From a virus, in IMG/VR virus record IMGVR_UViG_3300045988_123906: DNA of 64,000 nt; one strand, written 5' to 3'. The notes beneath the pieces were generated by a model. The model was given only the letters and a program-made list of their open reading frames with translations. It had not been told where the DNA came from and searched no databases. Shown here piece by piece: positions 6,202 through 35,919 of the stretch. The position numbers were made by a program, and so were the translations under genes. Numbering within the stretch: position 1 is the stretch's first letter; each line of letters opens with the position of its first letter.

Positions 6202-6418
6202 AGAGTTTGACTGTATTCTAAACATACATCATGGTTCGGTAATGAAATTACTCTACTGAGATGTGTTAGGTGTTTTTGCCTTGTAATTCTATTAAAGAAA
6301 ACAGCAAGGTTTGAATCAGGAGGTGAATGAGATGAACGCAATGCCCTTCGACGATTCCGCATAGCGCAAGCAGAGTCGCCGCGAAACAGATTGAGATGAA
6401 TAGCAAGTCGAAAGGTTT

Positions 6419-6680
6419 GCACGTTTAGGCCAAGCCGAACGGAACGAATTGTTAGAGTGAGATACCCCCACCCGTGGCTGCCACTGGAGGACCGAGGAGC
6501 TCAGCAGGTGACCCTACAGGGAGGAACTCACGGTACTTACGGTAGAGCCCAAATAGAAATACAGCGATGATGCGTCACTCCGAAATCCCGAACTGCGCTC
6601 GCAGCTCAACCGCAGCTCATCAACGCTGCCGGCTGCAGCGATCGCATGTGAGGCACAGGACTCCACAGATATTTAGATCT
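6419..6680 (+). ncRNA. GC-rich structured module A1 (family of four; function unknown)
   Basis: 5' box GCACGTTTAGGCCAAGCCGAACGGAACGAATTGTTAGA (6419-6456) is identical to 6816-6853. 3' box ATTTAGATC at 6671-6679. The interior is GC-rich and hairpin-dense, with no RBS-led ORF. Confidence 0.45.
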
Positions 6681-6719
6681 CAATTTGAAACAAAAGTACA
6701 TAATCAAATAAGAAAGCGA

Positions 6720-6740: not shown

Positions 6741-6815
6741 CGGTCCTCCCATGTGAGGAATCTCGTATTTTACGAGCAGATTTGTGATGAATTGTTATCT
6801 GGTTTTACCATGATA

Positions 6816-7058
6816 GCACGTTTAGGCCAAGCCGAACGGAACGAATTGTTAGACTGAGGGGACACCCCCGAGGAAGGCGGAAGACGCGTCGACTGCAGGT
6901 ACCAGACATCGCTGGCCACACCGAACGGTGCCATCAGGGGGTCAAATGAAACTTAAAACACCCCAACCGACGCATCCAACAACCAAATTTGGGCCACAAC
7001 CCCTGGTTCATGAAAGATCTCCATCTCCAGCTAGTAGCTTCAGACAGATTTAGATCAC
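6816..7058 (+). ncRNA. GC-rich structured module A2
   Basis: Same 38-nt 5' box as A1 and 3' box ATTTAGATCAC at 7048-7058. Contains the helix CCCCCGA/TCAGGGGG and the hairpin CACCGaaCGGTG. Confidence 0.45.
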
Positions 7059-7189
7059 AAATCGCCTATATTATAATAATGAAGGTTGTGATAAGAGCAA
7101 CAAATACAAACAAAATGTAATGCTGTCATTTGTGAATATTTTCCAATTGACAACGATACGTTTTTGTGTAATACTTGTTTCAAGCGAAA

Positions 7190-9704: not shown

Positions 9705-10376
9705 ATGGCTGATAAATATCTCAGTATTATCACGAACTTCGGGTGCCACTACAGCTGCCCTGAGTGTATCGTCCGCAATAATAAGCTCAAGATGACGCCG
9801 ACAGGGGAGTATTCTTCTTACGCTCCGCTGTGGCAAGTTCTTCATAACGAATGCAAAGACTGCAACTGGGTATCTGTGTCTGGTGGCGGCGATCCGTTGT
9901 ATCACTGGTGGGAGCATCAGGCATGGTGGCTTGGCTTTTTCGAGATGTGCCAACGCTCTGGACGCAGGACCGAACTGCATACCAGTTACTTCGACGCAGA
10001 AAACAATCACGAGATTATGTTGTTTCCGTTTGGTAAGTTCGACCGTGTTGTATATCACCTGCATACGACAGATGAGATGGACAATGTTTGTCGTCGAGGC
10101 AACGAAATCGTTCGTGTGGTCTTTGTTGTGGACGACGATATGACTGAGGACGAAATCAATGGAATCGCTGATTATGTCGAAACGTCTAACGAGATCGACG
10201 AGCTTACCTTCCGGCAGCGTGTGGACGAGCACTACAAAGAAACTTACCATCTGCACGACTTCCTACTGGCTGGTCATCAGAAACGCTGGTGGTATGTCAC
10301 CCAGTGCGATTACAATACCTACTTCCATAACGGTAAGCTGTATACCAAGTATACTGATATCTTTGATAAGGAGTGA
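9705..10376 (+). CDS. radical SAM protein (possibly an NrdG-like activase)
   Basis: N-terminal CX3CX2C cluster (NFGCHYSCPECIV) and SGGGDP (GGE-like SAM-binding motif). 223 aa. Confidence 0.65.
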   Translation: MADKYLSIITNFGCHYSCPECIVRNNKLKMTPTGEYSSYAPLWQVLHNECKDCNWVSVSGGGDPLYHWWEHQAWWLGFFEMCQRSGRRTELHTSYFDAENNHEIMLFPFGKFDRVVYHLHTTDEMDNVCRRGNEIVRVVFVVDDDMTEDEINGIADYVETSNEIDELTFRQRVDEHYKETYHLHDFLLAGHQKRWWYVTQCDYNTYFHNGKLYTKYTDIFDKE

Positions 10377-11543: not shown

Positions 11544-11624
11544 GCGGCTATGGTGGAATAGGCAGACACGCCAAATTTAGGATCTGGTCTTCGGGTGAGG
11601 GTTCAAGTCCCTCTAGCCGCACCA
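11544..11624 (+). tRNA. tRNA-Leu (anticodon TAG)
   Basis: Leu-type D arm, anticodon loop TTTAGGA (one stem mismatch), 9-nt variable region, T arm GAGGG-TTCAAGT-CCCTC, encoded CCA. Confidence 0.7.
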
Positions 11625-11661
11625 TGTTCGAATATCAACACACAAAAAGAAGGAACGCAAA

Positions 11662-12024
11662 ATGATTTATCTTTATAAAAGTGATTTGACAAGAGCAAAA
11701 GAAATGAACCAAAAATGCCGGGAGGCTGGTGTGATTGCTCTGGATTGTGAGGGCAATGATTCCGACATGTATGGATGGCCTGATACTTTTTACCTGTATT
11801 TCCCCACAGAGGAATCTATCAAGCTATTCAACGATCTTTCTGATTACCTTCACATTGAGCGGACTGGCTTGTATATTATCCATAACGATAGTGGCGTGTT
11901 TTGTATTCCGGTTGACTATTATGCAGCCCAGTTTAAGGCTTTTACGCAAAACAATAATCGAGGAAAAACGAAACAGCTTATGAGGGTTGAGAATTTCAAA
12001 GAAGAGGAGGGCACAGCCGTATGA
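11662..12024 (+). CDS. hypothetical protein (120 aa)
   Basis: aagaagga RBS tract upstream. No motif recognised. Confidence 0.55.
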   Translation: MIYLYKSDLTRAKEMNQKCREAGVIALDCEGNDSDMYGWPDTFYLYFPTEESIKLFNDLSDYLHIERTGLYIIHNDSGVFCIPVDYYAAQFKAFTQNNNRGKTKQLMRVENFKEEEGTAV

Positions 12025-12395
12025 ACTCCATTATCAATCCTTGGGTGTTCTACTGGATTGGCATCGTAGATAGTGTCAGAACACTACTAATCGTCATTCT
12101 AACCGTGCTTATGATCGGAGGAGCGATTATGTTCATATGTACTATGAGCGATGCAGACGATCGTGGCTTTAAAGACAAAGATGTAGCCGAGGAAGTAAAA
12201 CTCTGCATCAAGGTTGCAATTGCAACTTTTGTTGTCGCGGTTCTGGTTTGTGTGGTTCCTTCTGAAGATACCTGCTATAAGATGCTCGCCGCTGATATGT
12301 TTACGCAGGATAACATCAACAACGCCACTGAGTATGTCACTGACGTGATCGATTATGCGGTCGACAAGGTCAAAGAAATGGATAGAAAGGACTGA
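12021..12395 (+). CDS. membrane protein (124 aa)
   Basis: ATGA overlap with the previous gene. Two clear TM segments (WVFYWIGIV..LLIVILTVLMIGGAIMFI; VAIATFVVAVLVCVV). Confidence 0.55.
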   Translation: MNSIINPWVFYWIGIVDSVRTLLIVILTVLMIGGAIMFICTMSDADDRGFKDKDVAEEVKLCIKVAIATFVVAVLVCVVPSEDTCYKMLAADMFTQDNINNATEYVTDVIDYAVDKVKEMDRKD

Positions 12396-12400
12396 GTAAC

Positions 12401-12649
12401 ATGGACGAGAGAAAATTCTGTATCGGTGATCGCGTAAGGCTTGAGTCTCCGTGGGGTCCTGATGATCCCAATGAGGGTAAAGAGGGAATTGTTGTTGGGT
12501 ATACAGAAGATACCGATTGTCTTCAAGTGCAGCTCTGCGATGGGTACACATGGAGCAAGCCAGAATTTCGCCTGATCGAGCACCTGCATGATGATTGGTG
12601 GGCACCTGTAGAGTCAACCAGTGAATGCCGCTGCGAGTCTCTGCTTTAA
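12401..12649 (+). CDS. outlying member of the C-x-C-[DE]-S-[LI]-L-COOH small-protein family
   Basis: 82 aa. N-terminal GDRVRL (SH3/KOW-like strand pattern) and C-terminal SECRCESLL, matching the array at 19251-22173. Confidence 0.6.
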   Translation: MDERKFCIGDRVRLESPWGPDDPNEGKEGIVVGYTEDTDCLQVQLCDGYTWSKPEFRLIEHLHDDWWAPVESTSECRCESLL

Positions 12650-12667
12650 TTTTTTTCGCCATCCAAA

Positions 12668-12684
12668 CACACTTTACACTGTCA
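12668..12684 (+). promoter_or_regulatory. CACACTTTACA motif copy 2
   Basis: AAACACACTTTACACTGTCA about 20 nt upstream of the 12703 start, preceded by AATTTTTTTC as at copy 4. Confidence 0.4.
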
Positions 12685-12702
12685 AATGAAAGGAGAAAAC
12701 GG

Positions 12703-12831
12703 ATGCATATCAAGTATGTGGACGGCCATTATGAAATCGTGTCGGCGGATAATGGCCAGTTCATTCAGTCGGCCGACACATGGGACGAGGCTCTTGACGA
12801 TATGAAAGAGCTGCTAACAACAACGGTATAA
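12703..12831 (+). CDS. hypothetical small protein (42 aa)
   Basis: aaaggag RBS 7 nt before ATG 12703, in frame with tracked ORF 12625-12831. Confidence 0.4.
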   Translation: MHIKYVDGHYEIVSADNGQFIQSADTWDEALDDMKELLTTTV

Positions 12832-12886
12832 CGAGCAAACCGGCTCGTTTACATAACATTTTTTTATTATAAAGGAGATCAATATT

Positions 12887-13318
12887 ATGAAGGCAACTGT
12901 TAAGTACAACAACGTTTTCGTCACTTCCGCTTACGACATCGAGACCCTGAAGAAGGTCAAGAAGTTCCGTCCCGAGGCTCTGGTTCTGTACAAGGGCGAG
13001 GGCAAGGAGAAGGAGCCTGTCTGCGCTATCGGTGTCAGCGGTTCTGCTTCTGCCAATGAGATGGGCGTGACTTTCGCAAAGAATTCTGTCACCACTCCCA
13101 AGGTCGCTACCATGAGCATCGAGCTGCCCAACGGCAAGACCACCGTCGAGGAGATTAACGAGTTCGTTCGTGAGAAGCTGGGTCTGGCCATCGTGAACTG
13201 CACCAAGATCGAGGAGCAGATCGCCGAGGCTATGAGCTCTATCGCTGCTGATGAGGCCGCTATGAACGCTGCTATCACCATCGAGAACGACGCTGAGCCT
13301 GAGGCCGCCGCTGAGTAA
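12887..13318 (+). CDS. hypothetical protein, probably abundantly expressed (143 aa)
   Basis: aaaggag RBS in an AT-rich leader. Every Lys codon is AAG and every Glu codon is GAG, unlike neighbouring genes. Acidic Ala-rich tail. Confidence 0.65.
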   Translation: MKATVKYNNVFVTSAYDIETLKKVKKFRPEALVLYKGEGKEKEPVCAIGVSGSASANEMGVTFAKNSVTTPKVATMSIELPNGKTTVEEINEFVREKLGLAIVNCTKIEEQIAEAMSSIAADEAAMNAAITIENDAEPEAAAE

Positions 13319-13357
13319 GAGCGCCGCCTGGTAAGAGCGCCGCCTGGTAAGAGCGCC
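13315..13357 (+). repeat. 16-nt tandem repeat GTAAGAGCGCCGCCTG x2.7
   Basis: Copies at 13315-13330, 13331-13346 and 13347-13357 (partial). Copy 1 contains the stop of 12887-13318, and successive copies place TAA in all three frames. Confidence 0.8.
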
Positions 13358-13470
13358 ACTGTGGTTCCACGCCGGATGTTCCAGCGCAATACGTCCGGCA
13401 TTCGTTTTAGATGATTCGTCAATCCGACGTTTCAACAATAAATTTTTCAAATTAAAAAGGAGTACATATT

Positions 13471-13701
13471 ATGCTGAAGATCACTGTGGGTACCAACACC
13501 AACCGTAAGACTGTCATGGCTACTGAGGACACTACCCTGCGTCAGTGCCTGGAGGAGAACGATATCAACTACTCTGCTGGTCAGACCTCTCTGGATGGCT
13601 GTGTTCTGCAGCCTGGCGACATGGATAAGACCTTTGCCGATATGCACGTTACCGAGAAGGCTTATCTGGTCTGTGTTCAGAAGATGGACAACGCCCGTTA
13701 A
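13471..13701 (+). CDS. 76-aa candidate beta-grasp (ubiquitin/ThiS-like) protein
   Basis: Strong RBS and exclusive AAG/GAG codon use. Ubiquitin-sized. The pattern LKITVG..RKTVMATEDTTLRQCLEE..SLDGCVLQPGD..AYLVCVQK resembles ThiS/MoaD/Ub strands. Ends in MDNAR with no GG. Confidence 0.5.
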   Translation: MLKITVGTNTNRKTVMATEDTTLRQCLEENDINYSAGQTSLDGCVLQPGDMDKTFADMHVTEKAYLVCVQKMDNAR

Positions 13702-13887
13702 GGAATTAACGGAGTCTGATCCTGAATCTGTTCGAGCGAATCTCGAATAAAGTCCGAATGTAAATCTGTTCTGGTTACAACAGATAAATAGCATTGCAGC
13801 CGCTGGCAGGCCGGTTAAAGTCTGCCTTATATGTGTCCAGTATCTGGGCTTTTAAATGCAAGATATGAATTTAAGGAGGAAGTAACT

Positions 13888-15363
13888 ATGGCATTCACTG
13901 GTTTGCTGACGAAGCTCGGCTCGAACGAATGCAACGAATTTTTCTCTGACATCAAGAGCAGGAACAAATTCGAAACCGAAGATAACACTGTCCTGACCGT
14001 TCTCCGGGCAGTGATGAACGAGGAGCGGCTGGCGACCTTTACCGTTGATCCCGAGAACAAGGGCATCATGCAGTCTCTGGTGGTCGAGAACGAGATCCGG
14101 CTTCCGGACGATGAGAAGCTGACAGCAGCCTATTACGCTGGTGAGCGTGGTCCGTTCACAAAGATCAAGCTCGGTCTGTATTTCCATTTCATCCCCAACA
14201 AGAAAGCAGCCGATTACATCAAGCAGGTGAAAATGTTCGACGAGGACTATAAGAAGGCGGGCTGGGTTCGTCTTGAGGATGTCTCTCTGTATGTCGATCG
14301 CAGCGGTGACGCTCTGGTCTATCAGAACGAAACCAAGCAGGCGACTATGGTGTTCGCTCCTTCGCCCAAGAGAATCCAGGTCATGCAGATGATGATGAGC
14401 TGTCTGCCTCGTCTGCTTCCGTGGGCATTCAAGGATCACCCGGCAACCAGGGATGAACTCGATCTGCTGAAGATGCTGGCTGAGCAGAAGTATGACAAGT
14501 TCAATGCGGCAATCGACAAGATCTGTGCAGCTTATGACTTCTACGGCAAGAAAGTCGAAAGCATGCTCAAGGGATTCTGCAGTCAGAACTTCACCCGCTC
14601 GATCCACGATCAGGAAGAACGTGTCCGCCGGGCAGAGAACAACGTCAACGATTATATGAGCAGCGCCCGCAATGCCATGAAGCAGGTGGATGAAGAGCAG
14701 ATGAAGCTTCTGGTGCTCCGGAATCGTGCCTGCAACTCTGGAGACGATGAGAAGGAGCTGGTCGATTTCTTCAAGGCGAACAAATCTCTTATCGCTCTGG
14801 ATAAGTCCGGCAATCAGCTGTGGGTCGGCGTGAACTGCTATCTGAATGACTACAACGAAGATATCTTTAAGCAGTATGTCGAAAAGCAGGATAAGATGTC
14901 CAGCTACATCTACGAGGAGAGCCCGTATGATATGGATCTCACCAAGAAGCTGTTCCTGGCTATCTGGAAAGAGCACCGGTTCAATCTGCGTGTCTACTGC
15001 GAGTGGATTGTCTATGATGACTGCCGCGTCGAAGCCGTCAGAAGCACTAACATGAATCACCGAGAAGACCTGATGAAGAATCGTTTTCCTCAGCCGCATA
15101 TCGACCGGTTTACCTGTTACGGCGGCTATCGCGGTATGCTTCAGGATCTGGCTCTCCGCCGTGATTACATCGGCGTTTTGTCTACTCTGGTGACTTCTTC
15201 TTCCTATATCAACTGGACGGATTCTACGGTCGTCGAATGGATGATGGAAAAGCTGTTCGGCGATTATAGTAATCGGAAGTGTCTGGAAGATAAGGATGGT
15301 AATCTCTACACCATCAAACAGGTGGTTGAGATCCTGGAAAACGAAAGCAGAGAAACGGCATAA
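13888..15363 (+). CDS. large protein of unknown family (491 aa); C-terminal region possibly E2-like
   Basis: aaggagg RBS 8 nt before ATG 13888, in frame with tracked ORF 13831-15363. Central coiled-coil. The C-terminal FPQPHIDRFTCYGG loosely recalls the HPN..C loop of E2 folds. Confidence 0.6.
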   Translation: MAFTGLLTKLGSNECNEFFSDIKSRNKFETEDNTVLTVLRAVMNEERLATFTVDPENKGIMQSLVVENEIRLPDDEKLTAAYYAGERGPFTKIKLGLYFHFIPNKKAADYIKQVKMFDEDYKKAGWVRLEDVSLYVDRSGDALVYQNETKQATMVFAPSPKRIQVMQMMMSCLPRLLPWAFKDHPATRDELDLLKMLAEQKYDKFNAAIDKICAAYDFYGKKVESMLKGFCSQNFTRSIHDQEERVRRAENNVNDYMSSARNAMKQVDEEQMKLLVLRNRACNSGDDEKELVDFFKANKSLIALDKSGNQLWVGVNCYLNDYNEDIFKQYVEKQDKMSSYIYEESPYDMDLTKKLFLAIWKEHRFNLRVYCEWIVYDDCRVEAVRSTNMNHREDLMKNRFPQPHIDRFTCYGGYRGMLQDLALRRDYIGVLSTLVTSSSYINWTDSTVVEWMMEKLFGDYSNRKCLEDKDGNLYTIKQVVEILENESRETA

Positions 15364-15376
15364 GGAGGTTTGAAGT

Positions 15377-16354
15377 ATGCAGCCGGTTAAGATGAATGAC
15401 GAACTGATCCAGGGAATTTTGCAGGAGTTCTATGCACAGGCTTCTGCGTTGGGTAATCTGCAGGCGGATAAGTTCTCCTTTAACAAGAATTTTTCCAAGC
15501 CTGCCAAGGACGCAGTCGAGGTGAATTTCACTCTGGAAGCTTATCACGAGATGTGTGCCCTGATCGATCACTTCAGTACCGAGGTCGCCTGGCACGGTCT
15601 GGTGAATCGCATTGATAAGACTCACTTCCAAATCACCAAGATCCTGGTTTATCCGCAGCAGGTCACGGGCGCAACAGTGAATACGGACCAGGAAAAGTAT
15701 ACGACCTGGCTGTATGAGCTGGACGATGAATCCTTTAATACGCTGCGGTTCCAGGGCCACAGTCATGTGAACATGAGCACTTCTCCCAGCGGTGTGGATA
15801 TGCAGAATCAGTGGGATCTCATTGATACTCTGAGCTCTGAGGATTACTACGTCTTTATGATCTGGAACAAGCGGCGGGAGTATAACGTCCGTGTTGTGGA
15901 CATGGCGGACAATGTCATCTACAGCGGCGATGATGTCAAGGTGACGATTGGAGAGGCCGATACGAAAGGGTTTCTCGAACAGGCGGAAGCGCTCGTCCAA
16001 AAGCCGGTCACAACCACATACAGCGGCTACAACAATGGCTACAGCGGCAACTACAATGGTGCAGCTTACTCCGGCAACTACAGCGCGGGTACAGCAGCTT
16101 ATCAGGGAGGCGCGTTCGTTGGTAACACAAGCTCCGCAGCCGCGTCCACGAAAACAAAAGCAGAAACGAAACCGGCAGCCACGACGAACCCGGCGCTGAA
16201 AACTGTCACGGGTGGAGCCGCCCCTAAGATCGATTCAGCCAAGAGCAAGGGAAGCGAATCCAATCTGATGAAGTATTATCAGGAGAATCCGAACGACCTG
16301 ATGAACAATTGGAATTCGAGCTGCTATCCCTACGCTGACGCATTCCAGGACTAA
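15377..16354 (+). CDS. JAB/MPN+ (JAMM) metalloprotease with G/Y/N/S-rich low-complexity tail
   Basis: HSHVNMSTSPSGVD matches HxHx7Sx2D exactly, with an upstream Glu (TEVAWHG). The C-terminal ~110 aa is low complexity (YSGYNNGYSGNYNGAAYSGNYSAG...). Confidence 0.8.
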   Translation: MQPVKMNDELIQGILQEFYAQASALGNLQADKFSFNKNFSKPAKDAVEVNFTLEAYHEMCALIDHFSTEVAWHGLVNRIDKTHFQITKILVYPQQVTGATVNTDQEKYTTWLYELDDESFNTLRFQGHSHVNMSTSPSGVDMQNQWDLIDTLSSEDYYVFMIWNKRREYNVRVVDMADNVIYSGDDVKVTIGEADTKGFLEQAEALVQKPVTTTYSGYNNGYSGNYNGAAYSGNYSAGTAAYQGGAFVGNTSSAAASTKTKAETKPAATTNPALKTVTGGAAPKIDSAKSKGSESNLMKYYQENPNDLMNNWNSSCYPYADAFQD

Positions 16355-16368
16355 GAAAGGAAACAACA

Positions 16369-17049
16369 ATGGATCTGAGCAAAATCGAAATGGTGTTTGA
16401 CCCTGCGTCTGTTAAGGGTCGCATTCATATCATCGGCTGTGGTTCGGTCGGCTCTACTGTGGCTGAACTGCTGGCACGATACGGTCTGACCAAGTTCACT
16501 CTGTGGGATATGGACTTTGTCGAACCCAAGAATATCGTCAACCAGATGTTCTTCCAGCAGGATATCGCCCATCCCAAGGTGGAAGCTGTGGGGAACATTC
16601 TGTGCAATGTGAATCCTGATATCAAAGAGGATCTGGTTCTGATGCCCAATGGCTGGCAGGGCGAAACCGTCAAGGGTTATGTGTTCCTGGCCGTGGACAG
16701 CATCGAGATCCGCAAGCAGTTCCTGGAGAAGAATAAGTACAATCCTGAGCTGCTCGGTGTGTTCGATATCCGCACTGGCCTGTATGATGCACAGTGCTGG
16801 TCGGCCGATTGGAAGGATCGCAAGCAGATCGACAATCTGAAGAACTCCATGAACTTCACTCACGAGGAAGCAAAGGTAAGTACGCCGGTGTCTGCATGTG
16901 GCATTGTTCAGGGTGTTGCACCGACCGTTCGTTTCATCTGCTGTCTGGCGGTTACGAACTTTATCAATTTCGTGGGAGGCAACCAGCTGAAGAAGCAGAT
17001 CGTTGCAACCCCGTTCATTCTGGGTGAAGAGAGCGTCATGGCGTTCTGA
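16369..17049 (+). CDS. minimal E1-like (ThiF/MoeB-family) adenylation protein
   Basis: Rossmann GxGxxG (IIGCGSVGS) followed by WDMDFVEPKNIVNQ...HPKVEA, the ThiF/E1 nucleotide-binding signature. Only 226 aa. Confidence 0.7.
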   Translation: MDLSKIEMVFDPASVKGRIHIIGCGSVGSTVAELLARYGLTKFTLWDMDFVEPKNIVNQMFFQQDIAHPKVEAVGNILCNVNPDIKEDLVLMPNGWQGETVKGYVFLAVDSIEIRKQFLEKNKYNPELLGVFDIRTGLYDAQCWSADWKDRKQIDNLKNSMNFTHEEAKVSTPVSACGIVQGVAPTVRFICCLAVTNFINFVGGNQLKKQIVATPFILGEESVMAF

Positions 17050-17097
17050 TAAAATCGTAAATAAAAAAATCGTGATGAATAGTTGTTTTTATAAACA

Positions 17098-17329
17098 GCG
17101 CACTTAGGCCAAGCCAAGTGTATCGAATTGTTAAGAAGAGGGGGTCCTCCCCCTGTGGCATCAACATTGCAAAACTAAACGCGTGCCGCCGGATGACGGT
17201 GCTACCACAGGGTTCGAAACGATCTTCCTGGGTCACCCGAATGCGGTTATATAGCCAATTTCAGCATCCAATCATGATCGGGACCTCCTACAGCATGCAT
17301 TATAGCCTCAAGAAACCCATTTAGATCAC
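17098..17329 (+). ncRNA. GC-rich structured module B, immediately upstream of the RT
   Basis: Diverged 5' box GCGCACTTAGGCCAAGCCAAGTGTATCGAATTGTTAAGA and 3' box ATTTAGATCAC (17319-17329), 24 nt before the RT start. Contains hairpin GGGGGtcctCCCCC and the 8-bp helix CCCTGTGG/CCACAGGG. Confidence 0.5.
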
Positions 17330-17352
17330 GATGAAATCATAAAGGAGAAACA

Positions 17353-18585
17353 ATGTACATTACATATCTGAATCCTCCTAAGACTCGGCAGATCACTTTT
17401 GATGAGATCCTTGCCGGTGTCCAGAATGTAGAAGCACTGCACTATGGCGGCAGCAACACATCTACAATGACCGTGTGCCGCAATGACTTAACCGCCAAAC
17501 TTCGCGCTATCACAAATGTTCCTGAGATGATCGAGAAGTTGGTGGACTACAACGTGAAATATGCGACGCTTGAATCCAGCGATATCCCGAGTCACTATTC
17601 TCACTTTGAGATTCCAAAGAAATCTGGTGGCTGGCGACCCATTGATGCGCCAGATGAAACTCTTTCTGATGCACTGATCGAGCTGCGGGAACTGCTGAAG
17701 AGCTTTATGATCGCAGATTATCACACGAATGCTTTCGCATATATTCCCAATCGCAGCTTTATCGATGCGGTCCGTAAGCATCAGGCAGGTCACAATAAAA
17801 CCGTCGTTGATGAGGCGACCGGCATGAAAAAGGTCGTCAATTATCAGAATCATTGGGCGGTCAAGTTCGACTTCCATGGTTTCTTTCCCAGTACGACACC
17901 GGATTTTCTGCTCGGCATGATGAGTGTGATCTATCCATTTGCTCTGATCATGCGGGATGCACATGGCCGAGATGAACTGGCAAAGGCGGTCAACCTGTGC
18001 TTTCTTCGCAACGGCCTGCCGCAGGGAACTCCCATCAGTCCGTGGCTTACCAATGTGATGATGATTCCGTTTGACCACTGTATCACTCGCAAGCTGTGCT
18101 ATGGCTACAAAGCAAAGGACGGCATCGATCGCGAGTTTACTTTCACACGATATGCAGATGATATCCTCATCAGCTGTTATCATCACTTTGACCCGATGGA
18201 AATTCAGCAGATCATCATTGATGCGTTGAACTTCTTTCATGCGCCGTTTACTCTGAACGAAACGAAAACGCATTACGGCAACCGGCACTCCAGCAAGAAC
18301 TGGTGTCTCGGCTTGATGTGGAATAAGGACAATCAGATCACGGTTGGCTGGCGCAATCTTAAAATGTTCCGTTCGGCTATGACGAACTATATCGATACAA
18401 AGCAGCATGGCAGGACCTGGGAGCTGGAAGATCTGCAAAAGTTCAATGGCAAGCTCAACTATTATCACATGGTCGAGCCTGAGGTGATCGACGAGCTGGT
18501 TCGTCGTTACAATGCAAAGTTCGGCACTGATATTATTGCGATGCTCAAAGAAGATCTTCGTCCCAAAGAGGGCGTTGTTGCATAA
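17353..18585 (+). CDS. reverse transcriptase, retron/Abi/UG-like
   Basis: RT motifs in order: NRSFIDAVRKH, FDFHGFFPS, LPQGTPISPWLTNV, RYADDILIS (YADD box), NETKTH. 410 aa with no endonuclease or maturase tail seen. Confidence 0.85.
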   Translation: MYITYLNPPKTRQITFDEILAGVQNVEALHYGGSNTSTMTVCRNDLTAKLRAITNVPEMIEKLVDYNVKYATLESSDIPSHYSHFEIPKKSGGWRPIDAPDETLSDALIELRELLKSFMIADYHTNAFAYIPNRSFIDAVRKHQAGHNKTVVDEATGMKKVVNYQNHWAVKFDFHGFFPSTTPDFLLGMMSVIYPFALIMRDAHGRDELAKAVNLCFLRNGLPQGTPISPWLTNVMMIPFDHCITRKLCYGYKAKDGIDREFTFTRYADDILISCYHHFDPMEIQQIIIDALNFFHAPFTLNETKTHYGNRHSSKNWCLGLMWNKDNQITVGWRNLKMFRSAMTNYIDTKQHGRTWELEDLQKFNGKLNYYHMVEPEVIDELVRRYNAKFGTDIIAMLKEDLRPKEGVVA

Positions 18586-18617
18586 AAAATGGAGACATAC
18601 ACAAGGAGTGATGATCT

Positions 18618-18965
18618 ATGATTGAAATTATGTGCCGGGATGGAAAGGTCCCATCGAAGGAGCTCGAAAAGGTCGCGGATATGATCTACTATTCCACGGG
18701 CATCGAAACAGAGGTGGTCTACGAAGAGGATCGGAGAGCCCTAGTGTTCTGGGGCCCTGAGGATGTCAAAGAGATCGTGGAAAGTTTGAATCTGAAATCG
18801 ATCAACACAGACGATACCAATTTCTGCGATACCATTGTGGCCGCCGCAGAGCCGCGCATTCACCAGGCAATGCTGGAAGCCGGCAGAGATGTCCTGTTTG
18901 ATGAAGTCTGTGAAACGGCTGCATCCATGGGCGAACAAATCGAATTCGATGAGCCCAATCAGTAA
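18618..18965 (+). CDS. hypothetical acidic protein (115 aa), co-bracketed with the RT
   Basis: aaggag RBS upstream. No motif recognised. Confidence 0.55.
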   Translation: MIEIMCRDGKVPSKELEKVADMIYYSTGIETEVVYEEDRRALVFWGPEDVKEIVESLNLKSINTDDTNFCDTIVAAAEPRIHQAMLEAGRDVLFDEVCETAASMGEQIEFDEPNQ

Positions 18966-19006
18966 TCAGTAAACAAAAAATCACTTTGCATATCGTTCCA
19001 AAAGAG

Positions 19007-19217
19007 CGAGCATCACGCCCAAGGCGGATGTTAAGAAGAATACCCCAGCAATCGGCCGCTGCACTCCGCCATAGGCCCCTGATCGTGCAGCTGGCCTCAA
19101 ACAATCCTTGTCAAGAAACACTCGTCCTTCGATCCGGGACGAAAGTCACGCGCCAGGTCGCGTGACAGAAGTCCCTGATCGTGCGTCCTCCCGTTTCCAG
19201 AGCATCGGATTTAGAAA
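19007..19217 (+). ncRNA. GC-rich structured module C (diverged), downstream of the RT cassette
   Basis: 5' box remnant CACGCCCAAGGCGGATGTTAAGAAGA and 3' box ATTTAGA (19209-19215). Perfect 8-bp hairpin GTCACGCG/CGCGTGAC. Internal direct repeat CCCTGATCGTGC x2. Confidence 0.4.
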
Positions 19218-19250
19218 GTGATTTTGATAAAAAGAAAATGAGGTAGAAAT

Positions 19251-19517
19251 ATGGAATTGATGTATAAGCCAGGCGATAAAGTAATGATTCGCCCGGATCT
19301 GAACTGCCGTGAAATTTATTGCATGAGATCAGGTCGCCACAATGGGGACTATACCTACAATGTGGTTGATCAAATGGTAGATCAGGCTGGAAAGGTTTTT
19401 ACGATTCAGGGTCCTCGCCACGGAGGAGCTGGATATACTCTGGAAGAGTCTGATTATGGCTGGACCGACGAGATGTTTATTTCTATCAATGAGTGTTGCT
19501 GTGATAGCATTCTGTGA
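19251..19517 (+). CDS. CxC[DE]S[LI]L-tail family protein, copy 1 (88 aa)
   Basis: YKPGDKVMIRPDL..YCMRSG..WTDEMF..NECCCDSIL-COOH. Confidence 0.65.
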   Translation: MELMYKPGDKVMIRPDLNCREIYCMRSGRHNGDYTYNVVDQMVDQAGKVFTIQGPRHGGAGYTLEESDYGWTDEMFISINECCCDSIL

Positions 19518-19525
19518 GGTGAACT

Positions 19526-19801
19526 ATGAAATACAGATACGATGTCGGTGACGCAGTGGTCGTAAAGCGAGATCTCAGAAAGAATTGCAGCTACTTTATG
19601 ATGTTCGGCCCCAATCCCAAAACATACAACACTGTTGTCGACGAAATGAAAGAGCTCGAAGGCAAGACCGTTCATATCGCAGAACATATTGATGGTCAAT
19701 ACTTCATTGAAGAAGACAATAAATCATATGCCTGGACGGATCAGATGTTCCTGACGCAGGACAAATACAGCGCTGCTTGTGTTTGCGAAAGTTTACTATG
19801 A
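19526..19801 (+). CDS. CxC[DE]S[LI]L-tail family protein, copy 2 (91 aa)
   Basis: YDVGDAVVVKRDL..WTDQMF..AACVCESLL-COOH. Confidence 0.65.
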   Translation: MKYRYDVGDAVVVKRDLRKNCSYFMMFGPNPKTYNTVVDEMKELEGKTVHIAEHIDGQYFIEEDNKSYAWTDQMFLTQDKYSAACVCESLL

Positions 19802-19817
19802 TTGGAATGATTTGAAA

Positions 19818-20021
19818 ATGCAGAATCCCTGCCATTATTGTGTGGCTCCCAAGCGTTATCCCGGGTGTCACGATCACTGTCAGGAGCGCCAGCAGTACGT
19901 CGAAACTGAGCTGACACAGCAGCACCAATACAAAGAAAAGTGCCGCATGATCAACGATTTTGATAATGAGCTATACACTCATAACCTGCGTTACAGAGAA
20001 AAATATCAACACAGATATTGA
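19818..20021 (+). CDS. small Cys/His-rich protein (67 aa)
   Basis: MQNPCHYCVAPKRYPGCHDHCQERQ, a possible metal-binding cluster. RBS is weak. Confidence 0.4.
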   Translation: MQNPCHYCVAPKRYPGCHDHCQERQQYVETELTQQHQYKEKCRMINDFDNELYTHNLRYREKYQHRY

Positions 20022-20045
20022 TTTACATAGAAAGGATGAAGATCA

Positions 20046-20867
20046 ATGGCAGAACCGGCACGTAAGCGCAAGGATCGCGTAGTTCAGTTCCCGCAACAGC
20101 CTGGTTCCGAAGCTCACATCACCATGAGCGAAGCCGAGCTGAAGGAAATGATTTGGGACATCGTGGCTGCCGCTCGCAAGAAAAAGCGCAAGACAAAGCC
20201 AACCAACAGCCTTTATACAAAGGATGGCCGCATCAAACCTTCGCCTGCTGATCCGATTCGTTCCAAAGAGGATTTCCAGAAACTGGCGAATTATCTCGCT
20301 TCCAACGGCGACCCCAAGTTTCGTCTACGCAACAAGGCGATTTTCGTGTTCGGGTGCAGTCTGGGTATTCGTTGTGGCGATCTTCTCAGTCTGAAAACGG
20401 CCGATGTTTACGAACAGGATGGCAGTGTGAAAGAGCATGTCGAACTGATCGAAGAAAAGACCCGTAAGCGCAATGTGTGCAAGATCCCTAAGATGGCAGC
20501 TGACATTCTTGAGGATTATTTCGATGAACAGAATTTCGAGATTAGTCAATCTGATTATCTGTTTCGCAGTCGCAAGGGTGGTCCTCTGACAGTGCGCGGA
20601 TTTTATCGGATCTTGAAAGAAGCAGGGAAAGCGTGTGAGCTAGATATCGATCTGTCCACTCATACCATGCGCAAAACCTATGCAATGGCTGCACTTCAGA
20701 CAGCGAAAAAAGCTGGTACATCTGGGCAAACGATCGAGATGCTTCAAGAAAAGTTTAAGCATAGCAGCCAGCGTGTCACGATGCATTATGTCAAGGCAGA
20801 CCAGGATAAGATGGACGAAATGTCTGATCGTGTGTCGGACTGGTTCGATGATGGAGGAACGGAATGA
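20046..20867 (+). CDS. tyrosine recombinase (phage integrase family)
   Basis: Catalytic signature present: R in LGIRCGDL, HxxR in HTMRKT, and H..Y in HSSQRVTMHY. 273 aa. Confidence 0.8.
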   Translation: MAEPARKRKDRVVQFPQQPGSEAHITMSEAELKEMIWDIVAAARKKKRKTKPTNSLYTKDGRIKPSPADPIRSKEDFQKLANYLASNGDPKFRLRNKAIFVFGCSLGIRCGDLLSLKTADVYEQDGSVKEHVELIEEKTRKRNVCKIPKMAADILEDYFDEQNFEISQSDYLFRSRKGGPLTVRGFYRILKEAGKACELDIDLSTHTMRKTYAMAALQTAKKAGTSGQTIEMLQEKFKHSSQRVTMHYVKADQDKMDEMSDRVSDWFDDGGTE

Positions 20868-21139
20868 CTGATTACATGTATCACCCAGGCGACAGAGTCC
20901 GCGTTCGACTTGATCTTTCGGAACATGAAGAATATAAAATGTTGTCTGGCGAAAATAAAGGTCAACGCTGGGTGATTTTTGACTGGATGAAAAAATACGC
21001 AGGACAAGAGATCGTCATTCAAAAGATCGCACAAACTAGTGGTGTTTACAGAGCACAAGGAATCGATGGCTGCATCTGGGCTGATGAGATGTTTGAGCCG
21101 CTTGTCGTGGACGAGTGCGTTTGTGATTCATTGCTGTAA
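20864..21139 (+). CDS. CxC[DE]S[LI]L-tail family protein, copy 3 (91 aa)
   Basis: YHPGDRVRVRLDL..WADEMF..DECVCDSLL-COOH. ATGA overlap with the recombinase stop. Confidence 0.65.
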   Translation: MTDYMYHPGDRVRVRLDLSEHEEYKMLSGENKGQRWVIFDWMKKYAGQEIVIQKIAQTSGVYRAQGIDGCIWADEMFEPLVVDECVCDSLL

Positions 21140-21160
21140 TGGAATGGAGGAAGTAGAGCA

Positions 21161-21433
21161 ATGTCAAGATATTATCAGTATAAAAACGGAGAGGAAGTGT
21201 TTGTTCGACCTGATCTGGAGCGCGGTGTTCAGTATTATATGCGTTCCGGTTACCGAGCAAATGATGTCAGTGTCACCCTTACTTATTCTCAGGCGCAGCG
21301 GCTTGGCACTGTGGTTCATATTGCCGGCAAGCGCAATGGCCGCTATTACATCGATGAAGATTATGGGTGCGATCGGTGGACGGACGAGATGTTCGCAGCA
21401 CCCAACGAATGTATCTGTACGCCGCTGCTGTGA
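21161..21433 (+). CDS. CxC[DE]S[LI]L-tail family protein, copy 4 (90 aa)
   Basis: YKNGEEVFVRPDL..YYMRSG..WTDEMF..NECICTPLL-COOH. Confidence 0.65.
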   Translation: MSRYYQYKNGEEVFVRPDLERGVQYYMRSGYRANDVSVTLTYSQAQRLGTVVHIAGKRNGRYYIDEDYGCDRWTDEMFAAPNECICTPLL

Positions 21434-21441
21434 GGTGAATT

Positions 21442-21705
21442 ATGGAAGGGAAATACCTGTACGAAATTGGCGACCTCGTAAAAGTTCGCGACGATATTGA
21501 TCGAAACATGTAGTATCGTATGCGTTCCGGTCCCAAAGCTGGACGCGAACCCGGGACTGTATATAATATCGGAAAATATAAGGGGTCAGTCCACAAAATC
21601 ATTTCTTATGAGCAGGGTTATTACAAAATCGATAATGACCCTGATCATCTGTACTGGTCTGATGAAATGTTTGAGCCGATGTCGGTAAACGAAAGCCAAC
21701 AGTAA
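21442..21705 (+). CDS. family copy 5 with in-frame TAG (21511-21513) and no CxC tail
   Basis: gaggtg RBS as for copy 2. MEGKYLYEIGDLVKVRDDIDRNM*YRMRSG..YWSDEMFEPMSVNESQQ. The TAG aligns with the CAG (Gln) codon of copy 4. The tracked ORF 21520-21705 is only the post-TAG part. Confidence 0.5.
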
Positions 21706-21721
21706 CATTGTGACATTGGAT

Positions 21722-21871
21722 ATGTCGGAACTTCATGGGCAGTTGGTTCATATTAAAGATTATTCTTCTCACGGGCACTATATCGTAGAAGAAACATATG
21801 ATTTTAGATGGACTGATGACATGTTTTCTGGTTTGGCAAACAATGAGTGCTGCTGCGAATCTCTGTTATAA
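21722..21871 (+). pseudogene. truncated family copy 6 (C-terminal half only, 49 aa)
   Basis: MSELHGQLVHIKDYSSHGHYIVEETYDFRWTDDMFSGLANNECCCESLL. It lacks the N-terminal GD..V..DL half and has no clear RBS. Confidence 0.45.
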
Positions 21872-21882
21872 GGAGGCACAAG

Positions 21883-22173
21883 TTGCAAGATACAAAATAT
21901 CATGTAGGCGATGTCGTTATTGTCCGCCAGGATTTAGATTTTAGAAAATGTTATTGGATGCGATCAGGTGGAAAAGAAAACGCTCCTTGGAGGAACGTTG
22001 TTTCAGATGTTGTAACTGAAGACATGATAGAGCTTTGTGGACAGACTATCGAAATCGAAGAAATAGTCGATACGGTCGATGGTAAAAAATACAGAGCAAG
22101 AGGTCGCTACTGGACAGACGACATGTTTTCTGACCAAATCGGCAATGAATGTTACTGTGAATCACTTCTGTAA
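21883..22173 (+). CDS. CxC[DE]S[LI]L-tail family protein, copy 7 (TTG start)
   Basis: aaggagg RBS 5 nt before TTG 21883. YHVGDVVIVRQDL..YWMRSG..WTDDMF..NECYCESLL-COOH. Confidence 0.6.
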   Translation: MQDTKYHVGDVVIVRQDLDFRKCYWMRSGGKENAPWRNVVSDVVTEDMIELCGQTIEIEEIVDTVDGKKYRARGRYWTDDMFSDQIGNECYCESLL

Positions 22174-22193
22174 ATTTGAAAGGAGAAATTATC

Positions 22194-22577
22194 ATGGAAA
22201 AGAATCTGTTTGAAATCGCAACTCGTAATCGCTATCGCTTTAACTACAAGGGCGTTATGACCGTAGAGGATCTGTGGAGTCTGCGGGTCGAGGATCTGGA
22301 TGCCATCTTCAAGATGCTGAACCGTCAGAAGAAGACCGCCGATGAGGATTCTCTGCTGGCCACCAAGAGCGCCGAGGATCAGGATCTGGCCAATAAGATC
22401 GATATCGTCAGGTATATCGTGTCTGTCAAGCTGGCTGAGGCAGCGGAGCGTGTGTCTGCCGCAGAGAAGAAGGCACAGCGCGATAAGATCATGGAGATCG
22501 TGGCAAAGAAAAAGGATAAGGCGCTGGAAGACATGGGCATCGAGGATCTGATGAAGAAGCTGGAAGAGCTGAACTGA
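22194..22577 (+). CDS. hypothetical coiled-coil protein (127 aa)
   Basis: aaaggag RBS before ATG 22194. Strong AAG/GAG codon bias. No motif recognised. Confidence 0.6.
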   Translation: MEKNLFEIATRNRYRFNYKGVMTVEDLWSLRVEDLDAIFKMLNRQKKTADEDSLLATKSAEDQDLANKIDIVRYIVSVKLAEAAERVSAAEKKAQRDKIMEIVAKKKDKALEDMGIEDLMKKLEELN

Positions 22578-22594
22578 GAAGGGGAGTATCAAAA

Positions 22595-23698
22595 ATGAAA
22601 GTTGTTGAAAGCGCAAGCAATCTGTTCCTGTATGGCGACGATATGAAGGCGTATGACAAGATCCCGGCGGGTACCTATGATATCCACTGTTCTGAGATGA
22701 CCGGTTTCTATCTGTCCCGCCGCCCTGATATGGTCATCAACGAAAAGGTGTATGGTGTCCAGAGCAGCAAGGTTGCCAAAGTGCTGAATTCGTTCAAAGT
22801 GTTCAACCGCAACCTGGGTGTCATCCTCAGCGGCAACAAAGGCATCGGCAAATCTCTGATCGCTAAGATGATTGCAATCGAGGCCGTCAAGCAGGGCTAT
22901 CCTGTCATTCTGGCTAACCGCTATATCGGCGGTATCGCCAATTTCATTGAATCCATCGATCAGGAAGTTATGATCCTGTTTGACGAGTTTGATAAAACCT
23001 TCAAGTCCCGGGATAATGAAAATCCGCAGGATACGATGCTGAGTCTGTTCGATGGCACCAGCGCGGGCAAAAAGCTCTTCGTTGTCACCTGTAACCAGCT
23101 CAATGGTCTGAACGATTATCTGGTCAACCGTCCCGGCCGCTTCCACTATCACTTCCGCTTCGATTACCCGGGCGCTGATGAGGTCGAAACCTACCTCAAG
23201 GATAAGCTCGAAGAGAAGTATTACGATCAGATCCCAGCTGTGGTCGATTTTTCTGGCAAGATCGATCTGAACTATGACTGCCTGCGGTCTATCGCCTTTG
23301 AATTGAATCTGGGCACTCCATTCGCAGAGGCCATCAAGGATCTGAATATCATCAATATGAACGAGACCAGCTACAAGCTCACTGTTATCTTCAAGGATGG
23401 TTACCGTGCGTCCAGCACCAAGCGTTTTGATATGTTCAATGGTGCACAGCGTATCTGTTTTGATGTCAAGCTGAAAGATGGCTACTGGCCTGATTTCTAT
23501 ATCAATACTGAGGATATCCAGTATAACCCCGCCAACGGTGAGCAGTTCATTGATGGAAAGAAGATTGATGTGGATAATCCGTATTCCAAGAGTGATGACG
23601 ATGAAAAGGATCGTTATGAAGCTTTTGAAAAGGACAACGGTGTGGTCAAAGTCATCATCTCTCGTACTCGTGAAAGAGACATTCACTACATGGTCTAA
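22595..23698 (+). CDS. AAA+ ATPase
   Basis: Walker A GNKGIGKS and Walker B MILFDEFD, with a C-terminal domain of unknown type. 367 aa. Confidence 0.75.
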   Translation: MKVVESASNLFLYGDDMKAYDKIPAGTYDIHCSEMTGFYLSRRPDMVINEKVYGVQSSKVAKVLNSFKVFNRNLGVILSGNKGIGKSLIAKMIAIEAVKQGYPVILANRYIGGIANFIESIDQEVMILFDEFDKTFKSRDNENPQDTMLSLFDGTSAGKKLFVVTCNQLNGLNDYLVNRPGRFHYHFRFDYPGADEVETYLKDKLEEKYYDQIPAVVDFSGKIDLNYDCLRSIAFELNLGTPFAEAIKDLNIINMNETSYKLTVIFKDGYRASSTKRFDMFNGAQRICFDVKLKDGYWPDFYINTEDIQYNPANGEQFIDGKKIDVDNPYSKSDDDEKDRYEAFEKDNGVVKVIISRTRERDIHYMV

Positions 23699-24538: not shown

Positions 24539-24796
24539 ATGAAGTATGCAAAAGGTGAAATCCTTAGTGCATATCAGCGCTTAACGAAAAGTATCAAATA
24601 TGGAGATGCATACTGGTCTGAAAAAGCAATGATAAGTGATGTTCTGAGTGATTACTTCAATCGGATCGAGAGCAAGAAAGTTGTAATCGATCCAAAATAT
24701 GAAAGCTATAGATGTCCAAAGTGCAATACAACGTTAATTGGTCAATATGATCACTATTGCGGACAATGTGGTCAGAAATTGGACTGGAGGATTTGA
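24539..24796 (+). CDS. small zinc-ribbon protein (85 aa)
   Basis: CPKCNTTL...CGQCGQKL, i.e. CxxC...CxxC. Confidence 0.55.
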   Translation: MKYAKGEILSAYQRLTKSIKYGDAYWSEKAMISDVLSDYFNRIESKKVVIDPKYESYRCPKCNTTLIGQYDHYCGQCGQKLDWRI

Positions 24797-24797
24797 A

Positions 24798-35841: not shown

Positions 35842-35870
35842 TTGCAAAATCTTCTTACATAGTGTACAAT
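35842..35870 (+). promoter_or_regulatory. sigma-70-like promoter
   Basis: TTGCAA (35842-35847), 17-nt spacer, TACAAT (35865-35870), 50 nt upstream of the 35920 start. Confidence 0.45.
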
Positions 35871-35919
35871 GAATCTAATAGTTCATATACCGACCCACTG
35901 TGTAAGGAGATATCAAACG

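Follow-up and report, generated by a model that had tools for sequence, protein, structure and literature searches.

The window analysed here, a stretch of 64,000 nucleotides (nt) of viral DNA (IMG/VR virus record IMGVR_UViG_3300045988_123906), carries on its + strand a compact cassette in which a ubiquitin-like protein (Ubl), an E1-like enzyme and a JAB/JAMM metallopeptidase stand next to a retron-like reverse transcriptase (RT). An earlier description, which we call the sequence-only reading, had proposed four co-directional genes between positions 13471 and 17049 and assigned them as a Ubl, an E2-like protein, a JAB peptidase and a minimal E1. The four open reading frames were found just there, on the + strand and each with a Shine-Dalgarno site, and three of the assignments stand, those of the Ubl, the JAB and the E1, but not that of the E2. 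The motifs quoted for them are real and well beyond chance. The unit exceeds four genes and comprises a 143-aa gene, the Ubl, a 491-aa protein, the JAB, the E1 and the retron-like RT. Not noticed before were the gene upstream, a retron-like non-coding RNA (ncRNA) together with the RT downstream, and the absence of the canonical Arg from the E1. The features of the cassette are these:

12887..13318, + strand: upstream gene, 143 aa, in every locus examined immediately before the Ubl gene.
13471..13701, + strand: ubiquitin-like beta-grasp protein, 76 aa (AlphaFold2 (AF2), Foldseek, C-terminal pattern).
13760..13853, + strand: conserved hairpins in the spacer between the Ubl gene and the gene of the 491-aa protein (GGCAGGCCGGTTAAAGTCTGCC, GTCCAGTATCTGGGC), terminator-like or tRNA-remnant-like.
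13888..15363, + strand: 491-aa protein of an unannotated family in the E2 slot (AF2, hidden Markov model (HMM) search, alignment).
15377..16354, + strand: divergent JAB/JAMM metallopeptidase, 325 aa (motif, PADLOC, PDB profile).
16369..17049, + strand: minimal ThiF/MoeB-type E1-like adenylation domain, 226 aa (Pfam, NCBIfam, PDB, MoeB alignment).
17069..17332, + strand: retron-like ncRNA (msr-msd), copy A (inverted repeat, folds, covariation, covariance model (CM) 87.2 bits).
17353..18585, + strand: retron-type RT, 410 aa, with a YADD active site (Pfam RVT_1 1.5e-15, NCBIfam, PADLOC).

The block is kept as a whole. HMMs of the six genes were run over 82 sequences (81 loci and the window), and the six genes appeared in the same order in 78 out of 78 sequences with enough flank (77 loci and the window), the four others being contigs cut at the edge. 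The expectation that the block would be syntenic in related phages was thereby borne out. The lineages L007, L008, L082 and L083, which are divergent and have other flanks, show the same order, and it persists in the most distant lineages, where the 491-aa protein is down to about 26% identity to that of the window. The flanks of these distant lineages vary between HU, RNA ligase, Metallophos, DUF3850, integrase and small paralogues, and the location of the cassette is among early and replication genes. Gene calling at ten divergent homologues gave the following arrangement:

Position 1: upstream gene, about 130-150 aa.
Position 2: Ubl, 75-83 aa.
Position 3: big protein, 480-545 aa.
Position 4: JAB, 250-330 aa.
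Position 5, in some loci only: extra acidic protein, 159-182 aa.
Position 6: ThiF-type E1, about 225 aa.
Position 7: RT, about 380-440 aa.

The protein at position 5, very acidic, is encoded in distant lineages by a separate gene inserted between those of the JAB and the E1. The location in a phage, also claimed before, was upheld by the PHROG matches of the window and by its relatives. The proteins of the window are all encoded on one strand and include a DnaB-like helicase, a large DNA polymerase, a DNA ligase, a nicotinamide phosphoribosyltransferase (NAMPT) and members of other PHROG families, and 71 viral contigs of IMG/VR, the longest of about 150 kb, match the window. The source is a large uncultured gut phage. 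Among GenBank phages there is one unannotated relative, MT835544.1, and a scan of GTDB gave only two short contigs in a Peptococcaceae metagenome-assembled genome, which probably reflect the binning of phage DNA.

The AF2 model of the Ubl, made from a 22-sequence alignment, has the strand and helix order of a beta-grasp (pLDDT 90, pTM 0.75), with low confidence at the last C-terminal residues. When it was compared with the PDB by Foldseek, ubiquitin, NEDD8, SUMO, ubiquilin and other UBL proteins came out on top (probability 1.0, TM 0.57-0.71, E about 1e-3); almost all of the best 50 fold matches were ubiquitin or UBL, mostly at probability 1.0, and TtuB was found at rank 29. The beta-grasp that had been suspected in the 76-aa protein is thus confirmed by both methods. 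The Pfam signals of the family are weak and belong partly to beta-grasp families (RA, TUG-UBL1); the most frequent one is DUF2604, which we take to be a family of the ubiquitin clan. The Ubl of the window ends in QKMDNAR, without the Gly-Gly whose absence had already been noticed, and this kind of ending is conserved. In 55 homologues and eight divergent loci the family ends in K-x-D-N-A, followed by 0-3 variable residues (none, R, A, AA, NV, VVM, LAA or LAV), and a C-terminal Gly or Gly-Gly was found in none of the homologues aligned or read (22 aligned and seven further loci). A C-terminal Gly is typical of Ubls and of sulfur carriers. A conserved tail with a short variable extension is the layout of a Ubl precursor, with Ala (or Asn) at the place of the Gly of classical Ubls and sulfur carriers.

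The E1 scores 69.4 bits with Pfam ThiF (cut-off 28.1, E 3.3e-19, residues 17-205). It matches models of ThiF, MoeB, UbaA and Cap2-type E1 in NCBIfam and PADLOC, with the ThiS adenylyltransferase ThiF (PRK08644) as the best NCBIfam match, and its matches among solved structures are UBA5, MccB, TcdA, MoeB, ThiF and Cap2. The conserved residues are GCGSVG (23-28), D47/D49, K70 and D110, the last of which corresponds to the Mg-binding Asp by motif position only. The enzyme had been described as ThiF-type and minimal, with no clear catalytic-Cys domain, and the results agree: there is no conserved catalytic Cys in the crossover loop, where position 143 is C, S or H across lineages, and the 226 residues hold no extra Cys domain and no Zn CxxC pairs. 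As for the ATP-binding Arg and Asp by which the sequence-only reading wanted it to be judged, the Asp is kept and the Arg is not. In a BLASTP alignment with E. coli MoeB, the sequence of which was entered by hand, N58 lies opposite the Arg of NLQRQ, and the eight E1 sequences compared (the window and seven divergent loci) all read N-I-x-N-Q-M-F. The short N-terminus also appears to be without the helix that bears the second ATP-binding Arg of MoeB-type enzymes. Nevertheless, the E1 is the best conserved gene of the block, with 51-66% identity where the 491-aa protein has 26-44%, and a word-limited search found 2762 relatives; among the 120 of them that were listed the length is 184-247 aa, nearly always 222-229. 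This high conservation and the many relatives argue for an active E1 with altered nucleotide contacts.

The 325-aa protein had been proposed as a JAB with an exact JAMM motif and an upstream Glu, and we accept it, on sequence grounds, as a divergent JAMM peptidase. Its motif, HSHVNMSTSPSGVD, provides H128, H130, S138 and D141, which together with E69 are invariant in 12 divergent sequences, 41-70% identical to the JAB of the window, and conform to the zinc-site pattern E...HxHx7Sx2D. PADLOC JAB models of the Cap3 type match 11 of these 12 members (best E 4.4e-5). The signal in Pfam Prok-JAB is weaker, 11.9 bits for the window JAB versus a cut-off of 25, and six of the 12 members match weakly. 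The five best PDB profile matches are all Rpn11, aligned on HxH...S..D, at E of about 0.45. The catalytic domain occupies approximately residues 1-200 and is followed by a low-complexity C-terminal third rich in Tyr, Gly, Ser and Asn. Such long tails of the same composition, with YSGNY repeats, are seen in the window (15970-16250) and in L007 and L008.

The protein in the E2 slot is a different matter. Its gene start at 13888 (MAFTG...) agrees with all homologues, and the AF2 model is confident (pLDDT 89.2), with an uncertain packing of the domains (pTM 0.50). Two alpha/beta domains, one at either end of the chain, are separated in it by a coiled-coil helix of about 65 residues (about 230-297), and the C-terminal one bears the motif P-[QN]-P-H404-x5-C410, in the window PQPHIDRFTC. 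Of all its residues, only D32, H404 and C410 are the same throughout 44 diverse family members, which share about 20% identity. The family is very large: an exhaustive HMM search gave 1921 representatives at E<=1e-3, of which 730 reach E<=1e-30, and there are at least 1,900 clusters at 50% identity. Among 150 matches listed nearly all are 450-510 aa. We found no match of the 491-aa protein in Pfam, NCBIfam, PADLOC or PHROG, no Pfam domain in ten family members that were checked, and no Pfam match, E2 families included, in the 44 members.

The sequence-only reading had taken this protein as a putative E2, but homology to E2 enzymes was not supported by family libraries, hhalign, profile or fold searches, and we reject it. 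Alignment by hhalign to the canonical E2s UBE2D2, UBE2N and UBE2I, whose sequences were entered by hand, gave a probability of 0.1%. Foldseek against the PDB had as its best match a MogA/MoaB-like protein at a non-significant E of 0.44 and no E2 among the best 50, Foldseek against BFVD returned a single uncharacterised phage relative, and the profile against PDB sequences gave coiled-coil noise only. What the protein does share with E2 enzymes is a conserved Cys with a nearby conserved His, H404 and C410 in the 44 members, and this is an analogy and no evidence of homology. In the model, the order of elements around the motif (helix, two strands, insert, two strands, His...Cys loop, three helices) loosely recalls a UBC domain, a resemblance that the searches did not back. 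We treat the protein as a new Cys/His enzyme in the E2 position, and not as an E2.

The 143-aa protein ends in an acidic tail and has just one invariant Lys, K42, which stands in a loop that is variable otherwise, and neither a family nor a solved relative was found for it in Pfam or the PDB. The invariant Lys makes it a candidate partner or target, and no more than a candidate. Three tandem 16-nt repeats (GCCGCCTGGTAAGAGC-like) at 13306-13357 start at the stop codon of its gene, and after them follows a G+C-rich hairpin with a U-run at about 13371-13410. The next spacer, between the Ubl gene and the gene of the 491-aa protein, has terminator-like matches at 13805-13826 and 13835-13849, and its hairpin elements recur in eight other loci. 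A real tRNA-Leu(UAA) occupies the same spacer in L007 (7894-7977), and in L082 the spacer looks, by eye, like two tRNAs. The hairpins may be what is left of a tRNA; alternatively, they may act as an attenuator by which the ratio of Ubl to enzymes is set.

The RT lies downstream of the E1 in all loci, at a distance of 170-620 nt. Its best NCBIfam model is that of the retron St85 family (1.9e-41, 142 bits, below the model cut-off of 235), as compared to 72.9 bits for a group II intron RT, and in PADLOC it matches retron RT_II-A (2.5e-37). It is a known problem that intron RTs get labelled 'retron-type' by mistake (PMC12350094), which makes checks for introns and diversity-generating retroelements important. 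A group II intron was rejected on finding no Rfam match at E<=1 in 12000-22000, and a diversity-generating retroelement on finding no long repeat pair in 11600-22600; the region upstream of the RT matches elsewhere in the window only the other copies of the ncRNA. From jumbo phages of Staphylococcus, a retron-like RT for which no effector is known has been described (10.1101/2020.12.14.422802).

The gap of about 300 nt that precedes the RT is bracketed by ATCGTGAT and ATCACGAT, the two ends of copy A of the ncRNA. The a1 arm is at 17069-17076 and the a2 arm at 17325-17332, just ahead of the ribosome-binding site of the RT, and between them lie an invariant G, always directly 3' of the a1 arm, two msr hairpins and a variable structured msd region. 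Terminal a1/a2 repeats, msr hairpins and an msd make up the retron ncRNA architecture of Mestre et al. (PMC7736814), and all of these, as well as the priming G, are present here. The arms change together in other lineages (GCTATAAT with ATTATAGC, GCTGTAAT with ATTACAGC, TTGATGTAAT with ATTACATCAA and TCCTGTAAT with ATTACAGGA). In an a1/a2 alignment that is small, and for which the arms in divergent loci were located by seeking complementarity, 95.3% of the cells were paired and five of the eight pairs were compensatory, a result reached by none of 500 shuffles and by slid controls only to 49% at most. For the msr hairpins, on a selected alignment with a hand-drawn structure, the figures were 92.5% of the cells and 13 of 15 pairs, with none of 500 shuffles reaching this and slid controls at 40% or less. 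The minimum free energy folds of 14 out of 14 sequences have the same terminal stem, two 5' hairpins and a long variable structured part.

A CM of the 5' part of the ncRNA finds three copies in the window, at 17067-17144, 6388-6465 and 6779-6862. The last two are orphans; they lie in non-coding DNA, some 10 kb before the RT, with covarying a1/a2 arms of their own and differing msd parts:

6388..6684, + strand: retron-like ncRNA copy B, orphan (BLAST similarity to A; CM 72.7 bits, E 7.6e-11), a1 at 6390-6397 (ATTGAGAT) and a2 at 6677-6684 (ATCTCAAT).
6779..7061, + strand: retron-like ncRNA copy C, orphan (CM 65.2 bits, E 1.5e-9), a1 at 6781-6788 (TTTGTGAT) and a2 at 7054-7061 (ATCACAAA).

All three copies of the window were part of the training alignment, so their matches are expected and the independent support comes from further orphan copies outside that alignment, which the model found in L011, L053, L059, L006, L060, L003 and L004. 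In L082 copies of the ncRNA are situated downstream of the RT. Several ncRNA genes for one RT is unusual for retrons.

Among known systems, Bil is closest in layout. It has the same order of Ubl, E2 slot, JAB deubiquitinase (DUB) and E1 (PMC10557695), which the sequence-only reading had named and that paper confirms, and its E2-slot protein likewise has a conserved Cys with a nearby His. The Bil DUB is known to pre-process the Ubl tail (PMC10557695). The differences are considerable. BilD is a large E1 with an inactive and an active adenylation domain and a mobile Cys domain, whereas the phage E1 is a single domain of 226 aa without the Arg and the Cys; BilA ends in Gly and the phage Ubl in D-N-A; BilB has the UBC fold and the 491-aa protein an unrelated predicted fold; and Bil is bacterial, while the present cassette is encoded by a phage and joined to an RT. 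Searches for homology to BilA-D in NCBIfam and PADLOC, libraries in which the presence of Bil models is unconfirmed, gave generic ThiF, E1-E2 and JAB models only.

Ubl conjugation without an E2 is carried out by the archaeal SAMP-UbaA-JAMM1 and the Thermus TtuB-TtuC systems. They resemble the cassette in having a small beta-grasp protein, an E1 of the size of MoeB, a JAMM peptidase and no recognisable E2 or E3, and the phage E1 has a weak NCBIfam match to the SAMP-activating E1 UbaA (9e-9). However, SAMPs and TtuB have a Gly-Gly end, unlike the phage Ubl, and serve as sulfur carriers too; UbaA retains the Arg and a Cys, and neither a 491-aa partner nor an RT belongs to these systems. The cyclic oligonucleotide-based antiphage signalling system (CBASS) shares other parts: the Rossmann half of the phage E1 matches PADLOC E1-E2 (1.3e-17) and NCBIfam 6A-MBL cap2_3 (1.2e-15), matches that span only about 70 residues, and the JAB matches Cap3-type JAB models. 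Cap2 can conjugate a CD-NTase C-terminus that is not Gly. Unlike type II CBASS, the phage cassette has no CD-NTase, no E2 domain or fusion, and a separate Ubl.

An E1 without catalytic cysteine is a feature shared with Bub, where it works through unconventional intermediates (PMC11601596). Bub differs in using Ser oxyesters, a peptidase-E1 fusion and a Ser-His protease, in place of which the phage has a JAMM protease and an invariant Cys in a partner protein. A phage-encoded Ubl together with a JAB peptidase is also known from lambda and T1, as TAPI (Ubl) and TAPK (JAB and NlpC) (PMC1779556), but these are tail modules without E1 and with a Ubl ending in Gly, and the present cassette has an E1 and stands among early and replication genes. 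The RT is nearest to type II-A retrons, the St85/Sen2 family, and the ncRNA follows the architecture of PMC7736814. What sets the element apart from retrons is that the RT scores under the NCBIfam cut-off, that there are several ncRNA genes, some of them 10 kb away, that it is borne by a phage, and that its neighbours are a Ubl, an E1 and a JAB and none of the listed retron effectors. Mestre et al. 2020 (PMC7736814) include no retron class with ThiF, JAB or ubiquitin partners, and our literature searches found no publication connecting retrons to ThiF, JAB or Ubl proteins, nor any about phages that carry this cassette.

The trio of Ubl, E1 and JAB is thus a known kind of system. What is new is that it is borne by a phage and occurs in every sampled member of the clade, the D-N-A tail, the E1 without Arg and Cys, the His/Cys protein in the E2 slot and the retron neighbour with several ncRNAs. 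The cassette could prove to be more than a variant of the known Ubl/E1/JAB systems. The reading we put forward, to which we give an even chance, is that of a non-canonical machine for Ubl activation and conjugation that belongs to a large clade of uncultured phages and is physically, and probably also functionally, joined to a retron-like element. It draws on the fold of the Ubl, the JAMM residues, the ThiF score of the E1, H404 and C410, the synteny, the scores of the RT and the covariation of the ncRNA.

It is conceivable that the JAB trims the short variable tail of the Ubl, and that it may later reverse the conjugates. A homodimer of the E1 would then adenylate the exposed C-terminal carboxylate, most likely of Ala75, or of Asn74 if the Ala is removed as well. 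As the E1 is without a conserved Cys, the acyl-adenylate would be attacked directly. The attacker could be the target amine itself, as in archaeal sampylation, which proceeds without E2, or else Cys410 of the 491-aa protein, which would then serve as a thioester carrier in the manner of an E2/E3 and have His404 as its base. The Ubl would be placed on a phage or host target, for which Lys42 of the 143-aa protein and the complex of the RT with its multicopy single-stranded DNA (msDNA) are candidates. The RT and the ncRNAs would make at least one msDNA species that regulates the Ubl machine or is acted on by it. It is a speculation that an exposed Asn would allow chemistry similar to that of MccB, which is among the solved relatives of the E1. 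There are precedents for two of the steps, the pre-processing by the Bil DUB (PMC10557695) and the E1 without Cys in Bub (PMC11601596).

Several points weigh against such a machine. None of the Ubl family members that were compared ends in Gly, and the E1 is without the Arg of NLxRQ, in eight out of eight sequences, and without the second-Arg helix, so that adenylation activity is not assured. The 491-aa protein has no likeness to E2 in sequence, profile or fold, and its role as a thiol carrier rests only on its position and the His/Cys pair. The coupling to the RT rests on a conserved adjacency in phages that are broadly collinear, copies of the ncRNA are also found 10 kb away, and in some loci other genes lie between the E1 and the RT.

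The Ubl cassette and the retron-like RT with its ncRNAs may have separate functions and be adjacent through genome collinearity only, an explanation that we take seriously while holding it short of an even chance. It is in line with the 170-620 nt between the E1 and the RT, with the extra genes that separate them in L007 and L082, with the ncRNAs downstream of the RT in L082 and with the orphan copies 10 kb away, but the adjacency outlasts changed surroundings and a fall of the 491-aa protein to about 26% identity. On the strength of that same persistence despite differing flanks, a functional coupling of the Ubl set to the retron can be suggested tentatively, again short of even. It is possible, though we find it doubtful, that all six genes work with the ncRNAs as a single machine, which would be a retron of a new kind with a Ubl-conjugation partner, kept across the phage clade. 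In the boldest form of this idea, the D-N-A end of the Ubl would be joined to the RT or the msDNA, or the msDNA would gate the conjugation. Protein tagging would then be under the control of reverse-transcribed DNA and serve the virus's own cycle and not the defence of the cell.

Other explanations concern what the set is for. A defence system carried by the phage, or superinfection exclusion, where the retron senses a rival phage and the Ubl, E1, JAB and big protein are the effector arm, would be a new retron type analogous to the conjugation defences Bil and CBASS. All characterised retrons are, to our knowledge, defence systems with adjacent effectors, the bacterial sets of E1, JAB and Ubl are defence systems too, the JAB and the E1 match PADLOC CBASS models, and the tyrosine integrases nearby hint at temperate phages. 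Accessory defence genes are usually patchy, however, and this cassette is found at one fixed position throughout the sampled members of a very wide clade; with no such retron class in Mestre et al. 2020 or in our literature searches, we regard defence as unlikely. Quite unlikely is a sulfur-carrier system, in which a Ubl like ThiS, MoaD or TtuB is adenylated by the E1 and turned into a thiocarboxylate, the JAB matures the carrier as in CysO/Mec+ or QbsE/QbsD, and Cys410 bears a persulfide or uses the sulfur, for instance in thiolating phage tRNAs or msDNA. The best NCBIfam match of the E1, its minimal MoeB-like form without a conserved catalytic Cys, the known ThiS-ThiF-JAB neighbourhoods in sulfur assimilation (PMC1779556), TtuB at rank 29 of the Ubl fold matches and the 16 tRNA genes of the window would all fit. 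Yet the top fold matches of the Ubl are ubiquitin proper, and Pfam and NCBIfam revealed no rhodanese, cysteine desulfurase or PP-loop ATPase in the cassette. The D-N-A ending also differs from the Gly-Gly in which, as far as we know, every sulfur carrier ends. A counter-defence directed against Bil or CBASS, with the JAB stripping host conjugates and the phage Ubl and E1 as decoys or hijackers, is very unlikely. The JAB is nearest to CBASS Cap3-type models, a NAMPT gene lies in the region of the cassette, and the phage is abundant in gut samples; but a deconjugase alone would suffice for that purpose, and what is found is a complete co-evolving set with a highly conserved Ubl and E1, whose D-N-A tail is no mimic of the Gly-ended Bil Ubl. 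Nor are these anti-Bil and anti-CBASS ideas favoured by a cassette that is never absent from the sampled lineages.

Prokaryotic Ubl conjugation has so far been described as a bacterial weapon against phages, in Bil, CBASS Cap2/Cap3 and Bub. Here a complete but strongly deviant Ubl set is found on the side of the virus, in every sampled member of a very wide phage clade. If the Ubl set and the RT cooperate, they would represent a new class of retron and a new use for reverse-transcribed DNA. The cassette also offers enzymology of its own, the activation of a carboxylate without an Arg finger and the role of a domain with invariant Cys and His, and it is a handle on abundant uncultured phages of the human gut. 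The distant copy of the whole cassette in L007 (contig k141_448020, 585,832 bp) comes either from a megaphage or from a bacterial chromosome that holds a prophage, and could point to the host.

Further features of the window are the two unusual tRNAs among its 16 tRNA genes and a family of small paralogues:

40753-40828 and 38659-38731: the two unusual tRNAs, one with the suppressor-type anticodon CTA and one with a two-base anticodon call, respectively.
12401-12649, 19251-19517, 19526-19801, 20864-21139, 21161-21433 and 21847-22173: small paralogue family, 82-108 aa.

ARAGORN calls the tRNA with anticodon CTA a tRNA-Pyl; its presence hints that part of the genome may use amber read-through or recoding, and the one with the two-base anticodon call is an oddity. 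A W-T-D-E/D-M-F motif is common to most of the small paralogues, and in most the C-terminus is rich in Cys and ends in C-x-C-(D/E)-S-(L/I)-L. Their arrays surround a tyrosine integrase, and the same arrays are seen in related phages. There are two genes of the tyrosine-recombinase (integrase) family, at 20046-20867 and 35869-37017, in a phage of roughly 150 kb, and the closer relatives have kept the first of them, a few genes downstream of the RT. The NAMPT gene at 24738-26276 belongs to PHROG 448 (E 4.7e-163); NAD+-salvage genes such as NAMPT have been described as phage counter-defence. A 223-aa protein encoded at 9705-10376, with no match in Pfam, has a CxxxCxxC motif (NFGCHYSCPEC) that is typical of radical-SAM enzymes.

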